A DNA stretch of 64,000 bases from Escherichia phage phAPEC8. The notes beneath the pieces were generated by a model. The model had not been told where the DNA came from. It made no database searches and saw nothing but the letters and a program-made list of their open reading frames with translations. The DNA lies in the sequence record NC_020079.1, one strand, 5' to 3'. Below, in pieces: positions 3,412 to 61,134 of this stretch (the stretch's first letter is position 1; each line of letters starts with the position of its first letter). A program made the translations under genes and the position numbers.

Positions 3412-4221
3412 TTAAATAAACACTTCAGTAATCAGTTTAGACAAACGTCCACGTTTATTATCGTCCGTTGTCAGTTCAACGTATCCAATAAAATCTACAA
3501 TTGGCTCACGAACACCTTCTTCATTTTCTGGATATAAAAGTTCCAAAATTTGATGCAGACCATTGCTACGTTTTTTAATTGCATATGTCTGGCGAACATC
3601 GCCTAATACAATAACATGCGTATTAATACCTGCACGTTCAATAAGAAGTTTAAGTGTTTCTGTTGACATAAGTTGTGCTTCGTCAATAATGACGATTGTA
3701 TTATCCAGGGTGGCCCCCAACAAATAGTTAGGAATATTCAATTCGATCTTACCTGATCCAATATCGTTTTCCAATTTGTTGGCTGTCATGAATTGCTGGA
3801 AAATACGTTTTGTAGATTCATAGTGTGCTGCTAGTTTATCTGTTTTATCCCCAGACAAGAAACCAATCTGGTCATCTCCTACTTCAGTAGGGTTCTTGAT
3901 AAAAAGTAGTTTACGGAAGTCTCCTGAACGAAGCATCTGCAAAGCTTTCCATAAAGCAACAGAGGTTTTACCAGTCCCTGCCGGAGCATTTACAACAGTC
4001 AGATCATTCCAGATCATGCTTTGAACAATCTTATTTTGGTCCCCTTCAGGCATAAATTCATCTAAACGGTAATCGTCATTACCTACCGCTTTTGCTGCAT
4101 AACGGCTTTCAATCTTTGCTGAATTAGCCAATTTCTGCCGTTGTGTTTTAGCTGCGGTTTTATTTCCCATAGTAGCACTCCTTTTAGAAGGGGCCGAAGC
4201 CCCTTTATTAGTTGTAAGCAT
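3412..4221 (-). CDS. phoH: PhoH-like ATPase
   Basis: Walker A NAPAGTGKTS and PhoH signature IGFLSGDKTDK. Confidence 0.8.
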   Translation of the reverse strand: MLTTNKGASAPSKRSATMGNKTAAKTQRQKLANSAKIESRYAAKAVGNDDYRLDEFMPEGDQNKIVQSMIWNDLTVVNAPAGTGKTSVALWKALQMLRSGDFRKLLFIKNPTEVGDDQIGFLSGDKTDKLAAHYESTKRIFQQFMTANKLENDIGSGKIELNIPNYLLGATLDNTIVIIDEAQLMSTETLKLLIERAGINTHVIVLGDVRQTYAIKKRSNGLHQILELLYPENEEGVREPIVDFIGYVELTTDDNKRGRLSKLITEVFI

Positions 4222-4708
4222 CTAAAGTTCCAGAAGTCAGAACTTTAATTACTCGTTCAGCACGGTTTGGCGTCTGGCTATACCATTGGCTTTTACGCAT
4301 GTTTTTACCTGCTTGAGTATAATATGCATTGCTGATTAAAGTCAAGCTATTTTGAAACCCTTCAGCACCTTTTAACCCCAACTGGAAAACCATGTTGATT
4401 ATTCCCAATTTACGAGTATCACTAACCTTATCATAGATTGGTGATAAGATAGCACTGTTTTTTATGTCTCTCTTCACTTTTGCAACATCGTCAGCAAAGA
4501 TTTGACGGGCTTCTTTTTCTGTGATAACTCCATTAGTCTTACGACCAAGAAGATTATCTAAGATTTGAATAGCCTTTGCTTTATCTTTTATTTTAGTCAG
4601 AAGGTGTCCTATGCCGACTGTCCAATAACCAAGATGGTCTTGATAAACAGTAAGCTTCAGTCCTTCATCGACTCGTAGCATATCAAACTCATCTACTACT
4701 TTAGCCAT
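4208..4708 (-). CDS. T4 e-type lysozyme (endolysin)
   Basis: Near-collinear with T4 lysozyme: MLRVDEGLKLTVYQD..GYWTVGIGHLL..INMVFQLG..WYSQTPNRAERVI. Confidence 0.85.
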   Translation of the reverse strand: MAKVVDEFDMLRVDEGLKLTVYQDHLGYWTVGIGHLLTKIKDKAKAIQILDNLLGRKTNGVITEKEARQIFADDVAKVKRDIKNSAILSPIYDKVSDTRKLGIINMVFQLGLKGAEGFQNSLTLISNAYYTQAGKNMRKSQWYSQTPNRAERVIKVLTSGTLDAYN

Positions 4709-20854: not shown

Positions 20855-21037
20855 TTATTTAAAATAGCTTTCTAGAAAGTTGCTAATATTTACTACAGAC
20901 TCACCCATGTAAATCCCTGCGAAACCGAAAACAAGCATACGTGGAATATTGAAATACCATTTATCTGCCGGAAAAGATGCCAGAATTACAATAGCAATTG
21001 CTATCAACATCATAAGAATTGTTGCTAAAATTATCAT
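20855..21037 (-). CDS. small membrane protein (60 aa)
   Basis: Strongly hydrophobic N-terminal half. Confidence 0.35.
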   Translation of the reverse strand: MIILATILMMLIAIAIVILASFPADKWYFNIPRMLVFGFAGIYMGESVVNISNFLESYFK

Positions 21038-53975: not shown

Positions 53976-56741
53976 ATGTCAACTACAATTACTAATTTAC
54001 CCGAAACATCAAAAGTTAATGGTTCTGATTACCTGGTTTTAGATCAACCTGATAAGACTGTTAAAAGCACAGTTTCCAACTTTCTTACTGACACTGGGGT
54101 GGTTTTAGCCACCCAGCTAAAAGATACTTCTGGAGCTACCAAGTATCCAGAACTTCAAATGTCACGTTGGAGAGATGAAGGTGATCCTAGAGGATGGGGA
54201 GCAGTAGGTGACGGAGCAACAGACGATACTAATGCCATAACACAGCTTCTTGCTGCTATGCCTGATGGATGGATTGTTGATGGGCGTAATCTCACTTTCA
54301 AGGTTACAACACTACCAGATATAAGCAAGTTTAAAAACGCTGCTTTTGTTTACGAGCGTATTGTTGGACAACCCCTTACTTACGTATCTGAGGGTTTCTT
54401 TGATGGAAATCTGACAAAAATTACGGATACACCATTTTACAATGCTTGGACGCAAGATAAGACGTTTGTTTATGACAATGTTATATATGCACCATTTATG
54501 GCTGGCGAACGTCATGGTGTACAAAACCTCCATGTAGCGTGGGTTAAATCAGGAGATGATGGACAAACTTGGTCTATGCCAGAATGGTTAACTCCAATTC
54601 ATCCTGATTATAATGCCTCTTCAGCAAACAAAGTTAACTATCATTGTATGAGTATGGGTGTATGTGGTAATCGCTTATATGCGGTGATCGAAACCCGTTA
54701 CTTATCTAACATGCGATTGAAGAAAGCAGAACTTTGGTCACGTCCAATGCCTTATTATAGAAGGCCAACTGGAGGCATAACAATTAGTTCTGGGTCTACT
54801 ACAGCGACAATTGTTTTAGAAAAGCATGGTCTTAAAGTTGGAGATGCTGTTAACTTTTCCAATTCAGGTGCAACTGGCGTATCTGGAAATATGACTGTTG
54901 CATCTGTAATTAACAAGGATACATTTACTGTTACATTAGCGAGTGCTGCCACATCTAATATAGATAATACAGGAACTACTTGGCATTTTGGAACACGTTT
55001 CTGGGATAGCCCTTGGGAAATTACAGAATTACCAGATGTTGCCTATTCTACTAATGCAGATTTATGTGTTACAGAAACCCATAGTTTTACAGTTATAGAT
55101 GATGATAATTACACTTTTGCTGTTGGTTATCACAATGGTGATGTTTCCCCAAGAAGATTAGGTATTTTGTATTTCAATAATGCTTACTCTGACCCAAGTT
55201 CTTTTACTCGTAGAACAATTAGTCAAGAATATGCTGACAATGCAGCAGAACCCTGCATTAAATATTATGATGGAATTTTATATTTAACTACCAGGGGTAC
55301 TTCAACTTCTGCTGCTGGTTCTACATTAGCAATGAGTACCGACCTTGGAGAAAACTGGAACTACTTAAGATTCCCTAACAACGTTCATCATACAAACTTA
55401 CCATTTGCAAAAGTTGGTAACTACCTTTATATCTTTGGTACAGAACGTTCATTCGGAGAATGGGAAGGAGAAGAACTAGATAATAGATATAAAGGCACGT
55501 ATCCTCGAACGTTTATGTGCAAGATTAATGTATCTTCATGGCCTACATCTTTATCCGATGTTCAATGGTTTAATATCACTGATCAGATGTATCAAGGGCA
55601 TATTGTTAATTCTGCATGTGGTGTTGGTTCGGTATGTGTTAAAGATGGTTGGTTATATTATATCTTTGGAGGCGAAGATTTCTTATCTCCTTGGTCTATT
55701 GGGGATAATAGTAAAAAATTATGGTACAAGCATGATGGTCATCCAGCCGATTTATATAGTTATAGACTAAAGATTACCGAACATGATTTTGTATCACGTG
55801 ATTTCAAATATGGAGCTACGCCAAACCGTACATTGCCTGTATCTATGGGTACAGATGGGGTAAGGCATGTCTCAGCCCCTGTAACTTTTGATAATGATGT
55901 ACAAGTATACTCTTTAACAGTTACTGGCCTTGAGCATGATGGGACACAACAATCTGCCGTTAGAATAAAATTAGATGGTGATTATGGGGTTGTTGCAAAA
56001 AATGTCCCAATAAAAAATCCTTCTAAACAGCGACTAATCCTATGTGGAGGAGAAACTCCTTACGTTACTGATGGATCGCTATTACAACTATATGGTTCAA
56101 ACCATACGTATCCAAACAGAGCAGTTTTATATGCCCCAGGAGGAGCATATACCCAAAATAATTTCATGCCGTATTTAGATGGACAAGTTGCATTAGGCGG
56201 TGCGTCTAACAGATGGTCAGAAGTGTACGCATCTACAGGAACCATTAATACTTCAGATGGAACATTAAAAACTAAACCTACAGAGATTGAAGATATTTTA
56301 CTGAAAGCATGGGAAGATATTCATGTAATCTCTTACCAATGGCTTAGTGCTGTCGCGGAGAAAGGAGATTCTGCGCGTATTCATTTTGGTGTTATAGCTC
56401 AAGATGTAAGAGATATTCTGATTAATTATGGCTTAATGGATGAAAATAGCACTGATTGTAAGTATGCTTTTCTGTGTTATGATGAATACCCTGCTATGTA
56501 CGATAGTGTTGTTACGGGACAAAAAGAAATCCCTTTATTTGATGATGAAGGGAATGTTGTAATTGATGAAGAAGGTAATCCAGTAACAATCGTAGAAGAT
56601 GTTGTAGAAACTATCGAAATAATTCCAGCAGGATCGCGATGGGGTATCCGCGCTGACCAAATGTTTTTTATTGAGATGGCTTATCAACGTAAAAAGTTAA
56701 AAGCTCTTGAAGAAAGACTTGCAACCCTGGAAAGTAAATAA
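53976..56741 (+). CDS. sialidase-like (Asp-box) tailspike or fibre with C-terminal intramolecular chaperone domain
   Basis: Asp-box repeats SGDDGQTW and STDLGENW; last about 163 aa (from 56250: TSDGTLKTK...GVIAQDV...AYQRKKLKALEERLATLE) match the endosialidase / T5 pb1 chaperone domain. Confidence 0.6.
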   Translation: MSTTITNLPETSKVNGSDYLVLDQPDKTVKSTVSNFLTDTGVVLATQLKDTSGATKYPELQMSRWRDEGDPRGWGAVGDGATDDTNAITQLLAAMPDGWIVDGRNLTFKVTTLPDISKFKNAAFVYERIVGQPLTYVSEGFFDGNLTKITDTPFYNAWTQDKTFVYDNVIYAPFMAGERHGVQNLHVAWVKSGDDGQTWSMPEWLTPIHPDYNASSANKVNYHCMSMGVCGNRLYAVIETRYLSNMRLKKAELWSRPMPYYRRPTGGITISSGSTTATIVLEKHGLKVGDAVNFSNSGATGVSGNMTVASVINKDTFTVTLASAATSNIDNTGTTWHFGTRFWDSPWEITELPDVAYSTNADLCVTETHSFTVIDDDNYTFAVGYHNGDVSPRRLGILYFNNAYSDPSSFTRRTISQEYADNAAEPCIKYYDGILYLTTRGTSTSAAGSTLAMSTDLGENWNYLRFPNNVHHTNLPFAKVGNYLYIFGTERSFGEWEGEELDNRYKGTYPRTFMCKINVSSWPTSLSDVQWFNITDQMYQGHIVNSACGVGSVCVKDGWLYYIFGGEDFLSPWSIGDNSKKLWYKHDGHPADLYSYRLKITEHDFVSRDFKYGATPNRTLPVSMGTDGVRHVSAPVTFDNDVQVYSLTVTGLEHDGTQQSAVRIKLDGDYGVVAKNVPIKNPSKQRLILCGGETPYVTDGSLLQLYGSNHTYPNRAVLYAPGGAYTQNNFMPYLDGQVALGGASNRWSEVYASTGTINTSDGTLKTKPTEIEDILLKAWEDIHVISYQWLSAVAEKGDSARIHFGVIAQDVRDILINYGLMDENSTDCKYAFLCYDEYPAMYDSVVTGQKEIPLFDDEGNVVIDEEGNPVTIVEDVVETIEIIPAGSRWGIRADQMFFIEMAYQRKKLKALEERLATLESK

Positions 56742-56789
56742 TACAGCTTAGGTGGTATTTCAATCTTTATATCCCACTTAGAGGTACTC

Positions 56790-57053
56790 ATGGCTAAAGA
56801 GAAAAATGGTTTTAAAAAATTTATTCGCGGAATGTTCTGCACTTACCCCGGCAACGGGGTAAGCTCTACGAAAGTCTGGAACGCTGTAGGCATGTCTGTT
56901 ATGACAGGCATGTTTATCTTTTTAGGAATAGAAAAAGAAATTCCTGAATGGATGGGCTGGGCTTTTGTTTTCATGATAACCCCTTCTCGCCTCATGAAAA
57001 ATCTTATTGATTTACGTTGGGGCAGATCACAATCTACCAAAGAGGATGACTAA
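56790..57053 (+). CDS. small two-segment membrane protein (87 aa), holin-like topology
   Basis: Two hydrophobic stretches and a charged C-terminus. Confidence 0.3.
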   Translation: MAKEKNGFKKFIRGMFCTYPGNGVSSTKVWNAVGMSVMTGMFIFLGIEKEIPEWMGWAFVFMITPSRLMKNLIDLRWGRSQSTKEDD

Positions 57054-58540
57054 TGGACGAATATGGTTTGACAGATGCGGGATTTGTAATCCCGACTTTT
57101 GACGATGTTTTAAACAACTACATGACAGCAGTAAAAAACACATTTGGTGCAGATGCAGCCACTTCGGAAGACACTGTGATCGGGCAACTGTTTAGAATAA
57201 TTGCATACACAGATTACACATTGTGGGAAGGTATGCAAGGTGTTTATAATACTCAAACACTGGATGGTGCAGAAGGTATTTATCTTGACGAAATCTTTTC
57301 TAAACGCGGTTTCTATCGAGCAGGGGCAGCAGCAAGTACAGGTTATGCATATGTTAAGAGCAATAACAAAGCAGCTTGGACTTATGAGCTAGGCACGGAT
57401 ATTTACTTCAACTCTGATAGTGATATGAACTACTATGTTAGCACACCAACTATGTTGAATGCTAAGATTGCAGCTTATCAAATCTCTTGTGCTAATGCAA
57501 CTGCTACAGGTGTTCCAAATATTACTTTTTATGCACAAAGTGCGGTAGATGGAGGACTAAACAGTAAAACACTTGCACCTGGTTCTTCTACATTTATAAC
57601 CGATCTTGAAACTTTTATCAAGGCAAATTTAACAGAAGCTGATCGTAGTCTTGTATTTTCTGATTCAGGTAACTTATCAATTGGTTTTACTTCTTTAACT
57701 AGTGATACTCCAGTGGGACTGGTAACTCCTATTAAATTTTATGCTAGTGTTCCGGTTGGAACCAAGTGGAGTGAGATTCCGGTAGTTGCAGCAGAGAAAG
57801 GATACAACCCTGTTGGCGTGGAGTCTATTACAGGGATATCTTCTACCTTTACAGGTTATCTTGACAGTGGTAACTTTTATTCATTTTCTCCTGGTCGGGA
57901 TGTTGAGACAGACGCAGAATTCCGCTCTCGTTTCAATGACAACGTTGATGAAGCTAACGCAGGGACACGAGCAGCTATTGTGAAAGCTCTGCTACTTACA
58001 GATGGTGTTACTAAGGTGAAGATTTATGATAACCCTACATTACATGATCAAGAACATGCTCCGGCTATGACTTTCCAGACTATAGTTTATGGAGGAAGTG
58101 CTGAAGAAGTTGCTGAAGTTATTTACAAAACTAAACCAATCAACAGTTTGACACATGGAACAACCAACATAACTGTTACAACGGAAGACGGAGGACAAGA
58201 AATTATTCGTTTTTCTCCTGGTGCTTCTGCTACGTATTCCGTAAAACTTGTTTATCAAACTGTCAACGGAACAACTTTAAGTGGAACAGAAAAACAAAAC
58301 ATTGTAGAAGCTTTACAAAACCTGCAAGCTTACTTTGAATTAGGTTCTTCAGTAACGAACGATCAAATCAAAGGTGTTATTTATGCAGCACTTGCTTTTG
58401 GACGCTTGACTTCTCTTCGTGTTTATGTTAAACTTAATACTGAGGATGACAGTAAATATACAGAGAATAATATAGTTCCTGCTTATAATGTTGTCCCTTC
58501 TTTTGACCTTGATAACATTTCTTACGAGTATGGAGTGTAA
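57053..58540 (+). CDS. putative baseplate wedge protein (J-like)
   Basis: 495 aa; position in the baseplate and fibre module. Confidence 0.3.
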   Translation: MDEYGLTDAGFVIPTFDDVLNNYMTAVKNTFGADAATSEDTVIGQLFRIIAYTDYTLWEGMQGVYNTQTLDGAEGIYLDEIFSKRGFYRAGAAASTGYAYVKSNNKAAWTYELGTDIYFNSDSDMNYYVSTPTMLNAKIAAYQISCANATATGVPNITFYAQSAVDGGLNSKTLAPGSSTFITDLETFIKANLTEADRSLVFSDSGNLSIGFTSLTSDTPVGLVTPIKFYASVPVGTKWSEIPVVAAEKGYNPVGVESITGISSTFTGYLDSGNFYSFSPGRDVETDAEFRSRFNDNVDEANAGTRAAIVKALLLTDGVTKVKIYDNPTLHDQEHAPAMTFQTIVYGGSAEEVAEVIYKTKPINSLTHGTTNITVTTEDGGQEIIRFSPGASATYSVKLVYQTVNGTTLSGTEKQNIVEALQNLQAYFELGSSVTNDQIKGVIYAALAFGRLTSLRVYVKLNTEDDSKYTENNIVPAYNVVPSFDLDNISYEYGV

Positions 58541-60243: not shown

Positions 60244-60789
60244 ATGATATTTACAAACTTTAAAAAATATATTCCTGAAGACCCTGAACTAAAAGAATTG
60301 GTAGAAGCAGAGAACATTCTTTTTCTTCGTTGCGATCAAGGTTACGACTGGTATGATTTACGTAGCACAGAATTCAATAACGATAAAATGAAAGTCGTTT
60401 TTGATGATCAAAATCGTATTGTGTTTTGGAATACTGATCCTACACTACTTTGCCCTGAAGATCTTTCTATAGCACAAGTAGATTTTAATATAGATACTTT
60501 TGAGGATATTAGGAACAAGGTTCTGGATTTAGAAACCTTAACTCTTAAGGATAAAGAGTATTCCCGTGAAGAGTTGATGACACAAGCTAGTGCAAAAATT
60601 CGCTCTTTACAAGAAACAGCGGTAGCACTTATAACACCTTTACAGTATGCTAAAGATTTAGAAATGGCTACTGAAGACGAATTAGCTTATCTTAAAAATC
60701 TTCAAGTTTATGTAGTTAAACTAAATCGTGTTCCGCTTCAAAAAGACTATCCTTACGCTATAGATTGGCCTACATTACCGACAGAATAA
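60244..60789 (+). CDS. putative tail fibre assembly protein
   Basis: 181 aa gene directly after the fibre gene (ATGA overlap). Confidence 0.3.
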   Translation: MIFTNFKKYIPEDPELKELVEAENILFLRCDQGYDWYDLRSTEFNNDKMKVVFDDQNRIVFWNTDPTLLCPEDLSIAQVDFNIDTFEDIRNKVLDLETLTLKDKEYSREELMTQASAKIRSLQETAVALITPLQYAKDLEMATEDELAYLKNLQVYVVKLNRVPLQKDYPYAIDWPTLPTE

Positions 60790-60798
60790 GGGATCACT

Positions 60799-61134
60799 AT
60801 GGAATTTCAAGAAGCATGGGGACTTGCAAAGGATGCAATAATCCCTTTAATCGGAGTCATCTGGTTCTTTTTCAAACAAAAAATGGATAAATTCGGCTCT
60901 GATCTTGAGGAAATGGAGGAGAAAAGTCGAGAGCTAGAGAAGAAGTTGGTCTTTGTTGAATCAACTTACGCAACTAAAGCCGAACTTACCCAGATGCTAA
61001 ATCAAATTAACTCTACATTAATGGCAAATAACAACACCCTTGAGCAAAAAATTGAAAAGATTATGGACCTCAAGAATGCGACTATCCAAATGATGCTAGA
61101 TGACATAGTTAAACGTACACAGAATAAGGGGTAA
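60799..61134 (+). CDS. small membrane-anchored coiled-coil protein (111 aa)
   Basis: N-terminal hydrophobic segment IIPLIGVIWFFF followed by a charged helical region. Confidence 0.3.
   Translation: MEFQEAWGLAKDAIIPLIGVIWFFFKQKMDKFGSDLEEMEEKSRELEKKLVFVESTYATKAELTQMLNQINSTLMANNNTLEQKIEKIMDLKNATIQMMLDDIVKRTQNKG

Follow-up and report, generated by a model that had tools for sequence, protein, structure and literature searches.

The 64,000-nucleotide (nt) stretch of Escherichia phage phAPEC8 analysed here (NC_020079.1; hereafter the window) contains an open reading frame (ORF) of 87 amino acids (aa) at 56790..57053 on the plus strand. We propose that its product, a small membrane protein of an unnamed family, is probably the holin of the phage and belongs to class II. 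A holin is the most likely role because distant relatives of the protein sit between endolysin and spanin genes in many Mu-like phages. It is further supported by the endolysin of the phage, which is soluble and has no adjoining membrane protein, and by the position of the gene on the late structural strand. An earlier note on this DNA had offered two roles for the protein. The first, the missing holin, is favoured by the cassette context, the late strand and the soluble endolysin; the second, a membrane-targeting tail accessory protein, is disfavoured by tandem mass spectrometry (MS/MS) of phage CB7 and by the structures in the PDB.

The lysis cassettes that carry relatives of the 87-aa protein, in Mu-like phages and prophages, have a recurrent gene order: endolysins of at least six types, most of them soluble, immediately precede the family gene, and embedded i-/o-spanin pairs come after it. 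In contig L011, a GH108 endolysin gene is followed by the family gene, by an i-spanin gene whose product combines an N-terminal transmembrane domain with a coiled coil, and by an o-spanin gene that overlaps it and encodes a lipobox. The order in Ralstonia phage RS138 is late activator, endolysin, family gene and Rz-like spanin. In Pseudomonas phage Bise, Mor and then an M15 peptidase precede the family gene, and it is followed by a spanin-like protein and by a 92-aa protein that has both a transmembrane domain and a coiled coil. The IMG/VR database was scanned with a 25-sequence sub-alignment, which gave 352 confirmed relatives, and the best 80 loci were kept. The family ORF was delimited in 65 of these loci, and a same-strand ORF abuts it upstream in 58 of the 65. 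Pfam assigned VanY to 23 of the 58 upstream neighbours, Peptidase_M15_4 to 11 (overlapping VanY), Amidase_2 to 10, Glyco_hydro_19 to three, Peptidase_M15_3 to two and CHAP to one. The 65 family ORFs form 24 clusters (at least 70% identity); in at least 16 clusters the abutting gene encodes a peptidoglycan hydrolase, and these hydrolases fall into six sequence-unrelated groups. A lipobox ORF lies downstream in 48 of 64 loci, and it is accompanied by an ORF with an N-terminal transmembrane domain in 36 of 64.

Upstream neighbours of at least 125 aa were taken as endolysins, which gave a set of 46. An N-terminal hydrophobic segment is absent in 40 of the 46 putative endolysins, and no other membrane ORF was found within 800 nt upstream in 32 of the 46 cassettes. 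A soluble endolysin with spanins needs a holin, and most of these cassettes offer no candidate but the phrog_1322 family, to which the 87-aa protein belongs. The argument is guilt by association, yet it recurs with different endolysin types. In some contigs (L013 111-440, L025 1146-1484 and L026 1228-1563), a non-endolysin protein of about 110 aa is encoded upstream of the family gene and spanins follow. It has an N-terminal coiled coil and a C-terminal transmembrane domain, a layout like that of XhlA.

The tail-cluster branch of the family, which includes the 87-aa protein, and the lysis-cassette branch are by profile comparison clearly homologous. They align over the full length (78 columns) with an hhalign probability of 99.5% and an E of 2e-22. 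In addition, tblastn searches started from P0081 or from the Bise protein reach PVP-SE1 gp42, KpS8 and Aeromonas proteins, so the branches find each other. The 87-aa protein matches phrog_1322, annotated 'membrane protein', at E 2.6e-26 over residues 7-87, and tblastn located it in 370 records, from phages of Escherichia, Klebsiella, Cronobacter, Salmonella, Pectobacterium, Erwinia, Aeromonas and other hosts. A profile built from 15 diverse members and searched against 1.84 billion representative proteins returned 154 clusters of relatives at E <= 1e-3. All 146 relatives tested matched phrog_1322. The 87-aa protein had no Pfam match even at E <= 10, DUF2644 (PF10841) included; DUF2644 was weakly matched by 10 of the 146 relatives (E <= 0.01; best E 6.3e-7), and the precomputed matches are marked 'weak'. 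On these matches, phrog_1322 is a widespread and unnamed family that appears to be distantly related to DUF2644; both families are uncharacterised. Many relatives carry SHTK-x-W-x-N before helix 1 and SKFLSL(K/R)YG after helix 2. A Foldseek search of the AlphaFold2 model against BFVD returned family members only, apart from a few 'holin' entries; as these stood at the non-significant E of 0.9-6, the helical-hairpin matches are uninformative.

The earlier note had described two hydrophobic segments and a charged C-terminus, and the ORF, Kyte-Doolittle profiles, the AlphaFold2 model and charge counts bear this out, with the second segment being the weaker. Helix 1, VWNAVGMSVMTGMFIFLGI (residues 29-47; 56874..56930, plus strand), has a 19-residue Kyte-Doolittle mean of 1.65, similar to the 1.4-1.6 that the same script gave for the transmembrane domains of lambda S105. 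It is preceded by the family hallmark S-x-T-K-x-W. Helix 2 (residues 53-77; 56946..57020, plus strand) is kinked at T64-P65 and consists of a hydrophobic core, EWMGWAFVFMITP, and an amphipathic basic part, SRLMKNLIDLRW. The highest mean over 19 of its residues (55-73) is 0.93, and the core W54-P65 comprises only about 12 residues. The AlphaFold2 model, made from the 146-sequence alignment (mean predicted local distance difference test score, pLDDT, 78), has helices at 7-16, 26-48, 53-63 and 66-77 and the same kink. The charges are +6/-1 in the N-terminal 28 residues, +1/-3 in the loop EKEIPE and +5/-4 in residues 66-87. Because of these counts, the positive-inside rule predicts an N-in/C-in topology with the short acidic loop EKEIPE outside and a charged tail.

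The protein thus shares two features with holins: it is small and has at least one transmembrane domain, and it is predicted to have the charged hydrophilic C-terminus and positive-inside topology of class II. Conservation is highest next to the helices, at positions predicted to face the cytoplasm: S25, T27, K28 and W30 before helix 1, and L75, R76, W77 and G78 after helix 2. Two residues at the opposite, outer end of helix 2, E53 and W54, are likewise conserved. S25 and W30 are kept in at least 90% of the 146 relatives, and E53, W54, L68, R76 and G78 are invariant in alignment A2.

The 87-aa gene is real and more than a chance ORF, given its occurrence in the 370 phage records, its match to phrog_1322 and its low ratio of nonsynonymous (dN) to synonymous (dS) substitutions. 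Compared with phi92, dN is 0.098, dS is 2.29 and dN/dS is 0.04, and this purifying constraint matches that on the baseplate genes in the same comparison. The protein is a homologue of phi92 gp144, rV5 gp29, PVP-SE1 gp42 and CB7_35, and in RefSeq it is labelled 'membrane protein' in both ESCO5 and phi92. A Shine-Dalgarno sequence, GAGG, was read from the sequence at 56781..56784 (plus strand), 5 nt 5' of the ATG, and the equivalent ribosome-binding site in the phi92 record is annotated as type GGAG/GAGG. Two in-frame methionines, M1 and M15, are present, and some gene callers start at M15 (73-aa entries). No Shine-Dalgarno sequence was seen 5' of M15, and the lysis-cassette relatives are without a second methionine. 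A dual start that yields a holin/antiholin pair is common among holins, though not obligatory.

The gene is on the strand of the structural genes and was correctly placed by the earlier note between tailspike and baseplate genes. Upstream lies an endosialidase tailspike gene (53976..56741) with four End_* domains and Peptidase_S74, a chaperone domain, identified by Pfam. Downstream is a gene with a Pfam Baseplate_J match (57053..58540, plus strand), whose product is 80% identical to phi92 gp145, a chain in the PDB entry listed as 21vq. The two ORFs share a TAATG stop/start overlap at 57051..57055 on the plus strand (TAA at 57051-57053, next ATG at 57053), implying that the 87-aa ORF may be co-translated with the late structural genes. 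The baseplate-J gene is followed by genes for a baseplate protein of the DUF2612 type, the short tail fibre, a protein of tail-fibre assembly and a 111-aa protein. Region 56000-58000 shows 97-99.5% identity with Phapecoctavirus genomes (ECO340P2, ASO2A, ESCO5 and nepoznato) and 83% with phi92. On the former identities, the window belongs to an E. coli myophage whose genome measures about 150 kb, of the genus Phapecoctavirus in the Stephanstirmvirinae, which is the sister group of the rV5-type Vequintavirinae.

The same note had called the position of the gene unusual, and this did not hold. The place among tail-fibre or baseplate genes is conserved in Vequintavirinae, Stephanstirmvirinae and Plateaulakevirus, and gene t of T4 offers a precedent. 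In rV5 and V18 the family gene lies between two tail-fibre genes; in rV5 it encodes gp29, and gp31, with one transmembrane domain, is two genes away. Seunavirus, Mydovirus, Avunavirus and Certrevirus begin this stretch with the short tail fibre and its assembly protein; then come proteins of about 104 and about 157 aa, the phrog_1322 gene and a tail fibre. The last three genes before that tail fibre form a membrane cassette, in which the ~104-aa protein has a transmembrane domain and a coiled coil and the ~157-aa protein is polytopic. The family gene is found in the fibre cluster of the Aeromonas Plateaulakevirus phages, too. The ~157-aa protein (phrog_7451, about five hydrophobic segments) is known from these four Vequintavirinae genera, for example in Salmonella phage GEC_vB_MG L008 (5446-5919) and as CB7_34. 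It had no Pfam match, and homologues are absent from the window and from the rV5 tail cluster.

T4-like members of the family (Acidovorax ACP17 L019 4926-5363; L014 4769-5161; metagenomic contigs) have an extra N-terminal transmembrane domain, which gives a three-helix layout like that of lambda S. In these phages the family member is a lone gene in reverse orientation, flanked by those for DNA polymerase and dUTPase/regA. The T4-like variants neither help nor hurt the assignment as a holin.

The other lysis genes of the phage are dispersed. The endolysin, a T4 E-like soluble lysozyme encoded at 4208..4708 on the minus strand, is 99.4% identical to ESCO5 gp080 in tblastn. It has no N-terminal hydrophobic, signal or signal-anchor-release (SAR) segment, and its PHROG matches are to endolysin and tail lysozyme families. 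The i-spanin gene (30014..30406, plus strand) encodes a transmembrane domain at the N-terminus and a coiled coil. It is overlapped by the o-spanin gene (30297..30641, plus strand), which encodes the lipobox LMMTGC; the equivalents in ESCO5 are annotated 'Rz-like spanin' and 'o-spanin'. The pair lies directly upstream of TerL and heads the late block, a long way from the endolysin gene. Lysis genes are also dispersed in rV5, PVP-SE1 and CB7 (PMC7344957).

Holin candidates other than the 87-aa protein were sought in this phage group. Beside the endolysin gene, the adjacent 49-aa ORF of the close relative ESCO5 (gp081) is basic and hydrophilic; the 'hol-like chemotaxis' protein gp113 is an acidic, soluble coiled-coil protein; and the small ORFs beside the spanin genes (29356-30030) are hydrophilic. 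All three were rejected. Published proposals, all made in silico, name rV5 ORF129 (PMC3606486) and CB7_82, which is beside a SleB-like protein (PMC7344957); for phage BME3, a remark flagging the family gene itself as a holin is already in print (PMC12210895). Homologues of rV5 ORF129 occur only in Vequintavirus (116 records), where the gene is in a block of small ORFs outside the morphogenesis unit on the early strand, and no homologue is present in the window. A 60-aa ORF at 20855-21037 on the minus strand, with two strongly hydrophobic segments (phrog_19851; phi92 gp090), is probably the '61-residue' holin candidate mentioned for BME3. It occurs only in Stephanstirmvirinae (113 records) and lies among DNA-metabolism genes on the strand opposite to the structural genes. 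The competing published candidates are disfavoured because they are lineage-restricted and on the early strand, while phrog_1322 spans subfamilies in its 370 records. It was the only small membrane protein family found to be common to all these genera and on the late strand.

If the 87-aa protein is the holin, lysis may proceed as follows. The protein would be made late, translationally coupled to the baseplate-J gene, and would accumulate in the inner membrane. At a critical level it would form holes through which the soluble T4-like endolysin (4208-4708, minus strand) could reach the cell wall. We infer large holes rather than pinholes, because the family is paired with soluble endolysins. 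The spanin pair (30014-30641) would then break the outer membrane, and the 111-aa protein may tune the timing.

For the 111-aa protein (60799..61134, plus strand), the PHROG matches are phrog_15210 (E 4e-70) and phrog_462 (E 5.7e-7). It consists of an N-terminal transmembrane domain, the residues KQK and a long coiled coil, and an N-out/C-in topology is predicted. It is labelled 'lipoprotein' in RefSeq and PHROG, yet it has no cysteine and therefore no lipobox. The 92-aa protein of the Bise cassette is a phrog_462 member; phrog_462 members follow the spanins in Mu-like lysis cassettes, and at least 30 of the best 80 loci encode a Bise-like protein at a distance of 0.6-1.2 kb downstream of the phrog_1322 gene. 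In Vequintavirinae, the family gene and a gene for a coiled-coil protein like the 111-aa one are 0.5 kb apart. The 111-aa protein may serve the 87-aa protein as a partner or regulator. Homology to the Mu releasin (DUF2730) was considered and rejected: hhalign gave E 0.017 at a probability of 2.7%, and there was no Pfam match. In both Mu gp25 and the 111-aa protein, the transmembrane domain at the N-terminus is followed by basic residues and then by a helical or coiled-coil domain in the cytoplasm, about 70-90 aa long. Mu gp25 is, like the phrog_462-type cassette proteins, encoded downstream of spanins. It is in phrog_736, not in phrog_462, and its resemblance to the 111-aa protein is one of architecture only.

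A bolder proposal would be that the 87-aa and 111-aa proteins form a portable two-part module for lysis timing, in which the lysis clock is tied to tail and baseplate expression, through gene placement and translational coupling to baseplate genes, and the 111-aa protein is a new antiholin or releasin-like regulator. The two families occur together both in lysis cassettes of the Mu-like type and in large myoviruses, there within the tail clusters; the coiled coil, predicted to be cytoplasmic, would act on the conserved holin motifs predicted on the same side. We put this forward as speculation and think it doubtful.

Several points weigh against the assignment of the 87-aa protein as the holin. 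The genes of the holin, endolysin and spanins are not linked in this genome, and the endolysin gene is about 52 kb from the 87-aa gene. More generally, the gene never adjoins an endolysin gene in the phi92/rV5 group and stays with the tail-fibre genes over large evolutionary distances. Linkage of holin and endolysin genes is typical, not obligatory, as in T4. No holin model of Pfam or NCBIfam was matched by the 87-aa protein or by any of the 146 relatives, the weak DUF2644 matches being the only ones and no informative family being hit, and the sources name the relatives only "hypothetical" or "membrane protein". A literature search turned up no lysis, permeabilisation or complementation assay for any family member. 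The IMG/VR loci are the best 80, represent one branch of the family and are partly redundant. Helix 2 is short, weakly hydrophobic and marginal as a membrane span, and it is weaker still in the rV5-type members; the TMHMM/Phobius scan of the rV5 authors left gp29 unflagged as a membrane protein. Finally, small membrane proteins of Mu need not be holins, as seen from the proposed gp19 and gp20 and the cassette releasin gp25 (PMC9239132).

These non-holin roles in the Mu cassette (PMC9239132) also speak for a different place in lysis, that of an accessory such as an antiholin, a timing regulator or a releasin-like protein. The true holin would then be another protein, for example the 60-aa ORF at 20855-21037, the 111-aa protein or one encoded outside the window. 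The weak hydrophobicity of helix 2 would agree with such a role, and the juxtamembrane motifs S-x-T-K-x-W and LRWG, predicted to be cytoplasmic, are the best conserved parts of the protein, which suggests a binding surface. A second membrane protein also co-occurs with the family, phrog_462-like here and in Mu-like cassettes and the 157-aa polytopic protein in Vequintavirinae. The latter, however, is missing from the window and the rV5 tail cluster, and the other candidates known from these phages are each confined to one lineage and lie on the early strand. In the 32 of 46 cassettes mentioned above, moreover, the family ORF is the sole small membrane ORF upstream of or beside a soluble endolysin that needs a holin. 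We therefore regard an accessory role as unlikely. A role outside lysis is still less probable. The protein could be a tail or baseplate assembly factor or a virion-associated, membrane-interacting protein, which might anchor the assembly of fibres or baseplate at the inner membrane or assist DNA entry. Its position among tail-fibre and baseplate genes is conserved in three phage lineages, its stop codon overlaps the baseplate-J start and it is conserved as strongly as baseplate proteins. The Mu-like homologues, however, are in lysis cassettes beside late activator and terminase genes, not tail genes, and the gene of the T4-like relatives is between DNA polymerase and dUTPase genes.

Data on virions also argue against a tail factor. 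In the GenBank record of CB7, the mark 'MS/MS confirmed' is given to CB7_24-31 and CB7_36-37; the mark is lacking for CB7_32, the assembly protein, and for CB7_33-35, three membrane proteins, of which CB7_35 is the family member (BLASTP E 3e-18). In the rV5 mass spectrometry data, gp29 is not flagged. No PDB chain matched the family profile at E <= 1, in a search that included the deposited phi92 gp145/gp146 baseplate (21vq) and the baseplate and whole-virion models of phiTE (9cuy and 9mjn; PMC11972413); the 111-aa protein had no matching chain in the same search. Absence from virions is negative evidence only, as small hydrophobic proteins are easily missed. Taken with the gene contexts, these data make a structural or assembly role improbable. 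The PHROG category of phrog_1322, 'moron, auxiliary metabolic gene and host takeover', points to yet another function, in superinfection exclusion or host takeover at the membrane. Exclusion does have precedents among small inner-membrane proteins with two helices, T4 Imm being one. Morons, however, are patchy in distribution, and the 87-aa gene is universally conserved under strong purifying selection; it also lies in a presumed late operon with apparent translational coupling to a structural gene, and it has relatives in lysis cassettes. We consider this function very improbable.

As a probable holin, the 87-aa protein can be compared with two well-known systems. The class II holin S21 68 of the lambdoid phage 21 resembles it in size (70-90 aa), two helices, a short periplasmic loop, late expression (presumed for the 87-aa protein), a basic N-terminal and a charged C-terminal cytoplasmic end, and in the endolysin-spanin cassettes, where the relatives of the 87-aa protein are found. 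S21 differs in being a pinholin with an adjacent SAR endolysin, whereas the family of the 87-aa protein is mostly found with soluble endolysins, and that of this phage is encoded about 52 kb away. The 87-aa protein has no detectable similarity to the holin models of Pfam and NCBIfam, and no clear dual-start motif is evident. In T4, the holin gene t is beside the tail-fibre gene 38 and far from the endolysin gene e. Similarly, the proposed holin gene of this phage is found in the late tail-fibre cluster and not with the genes for endolysin and spanins, and genes of the rII type are present in this phage group as well (rV5 rIIA). T4 T itself is different: it has 218 aa, one transmembrane domain and a large periplasmic domain, and it shows no homology with the 87-aa protein.

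The surroundings of the gene show signs of exchange. The endosialidase tailspike has 97.2% protein identity with phi92 endoN92 at a dS of 0.11, and the flanking genes have dS values of 1.3-2.7; the tailspike region (53976-56803) looks recently exchanged. Because the match of many Phapecoctavirus genomes to the window starts only at 56803, 14 nt into the 87-aa ORF, the boundary of the tailspike cassette lies within the first codons of the gene. This position of the boundary accounts for two N-terminal forms of the protein, one of 87-88 aa starting with MAKEKNGFKKF and one of 80 aa starting with MRKF. The tail-fibre assembly protein (60244-60789) has only 27.5% identity with its phi92 counterpart at a dN/dS of 0.61, compared with 69-87% identity for its neighbours, which points to its replacement, or to rapid divergence along with the fibre tip. 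A scan found promoter-like sites at the shuffled level (39 against 34.7 expected) and terminator-like sites at about twice that level (13 against 6.3 expected). One terminator-like hairpin, at 56886-56917, is inside the 87-aa ORF. It has 14 pairs, of which only four are G-C, is followed by a T-run and falls in the codons of helix 1 (GMSVMTGMF); it is probably a by-product of repeated GGCATG codons.

Phages of the rV5, phi92 and PVP-SE1 groups are often isolated and find wide use in therapy and biocontrol, and the published guesses at their holin name different genes in different genera. The 87-aa protein probably represents a new holin family, hinted at once in print. The novelty is modest, and so is the conceptual gain of one holin family among dozens, unless the link to the 111-aa protein proves to be a new mode of regulation. 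If the assignment is true, it would complete the lysis system of several large phage groups and give a function to a widespread 'hypothetical' family in Mu-like prophages of Proteobacteria. It would also make lysis timing open to engineering and allow lysis-deficient therapeutic phages to be built.

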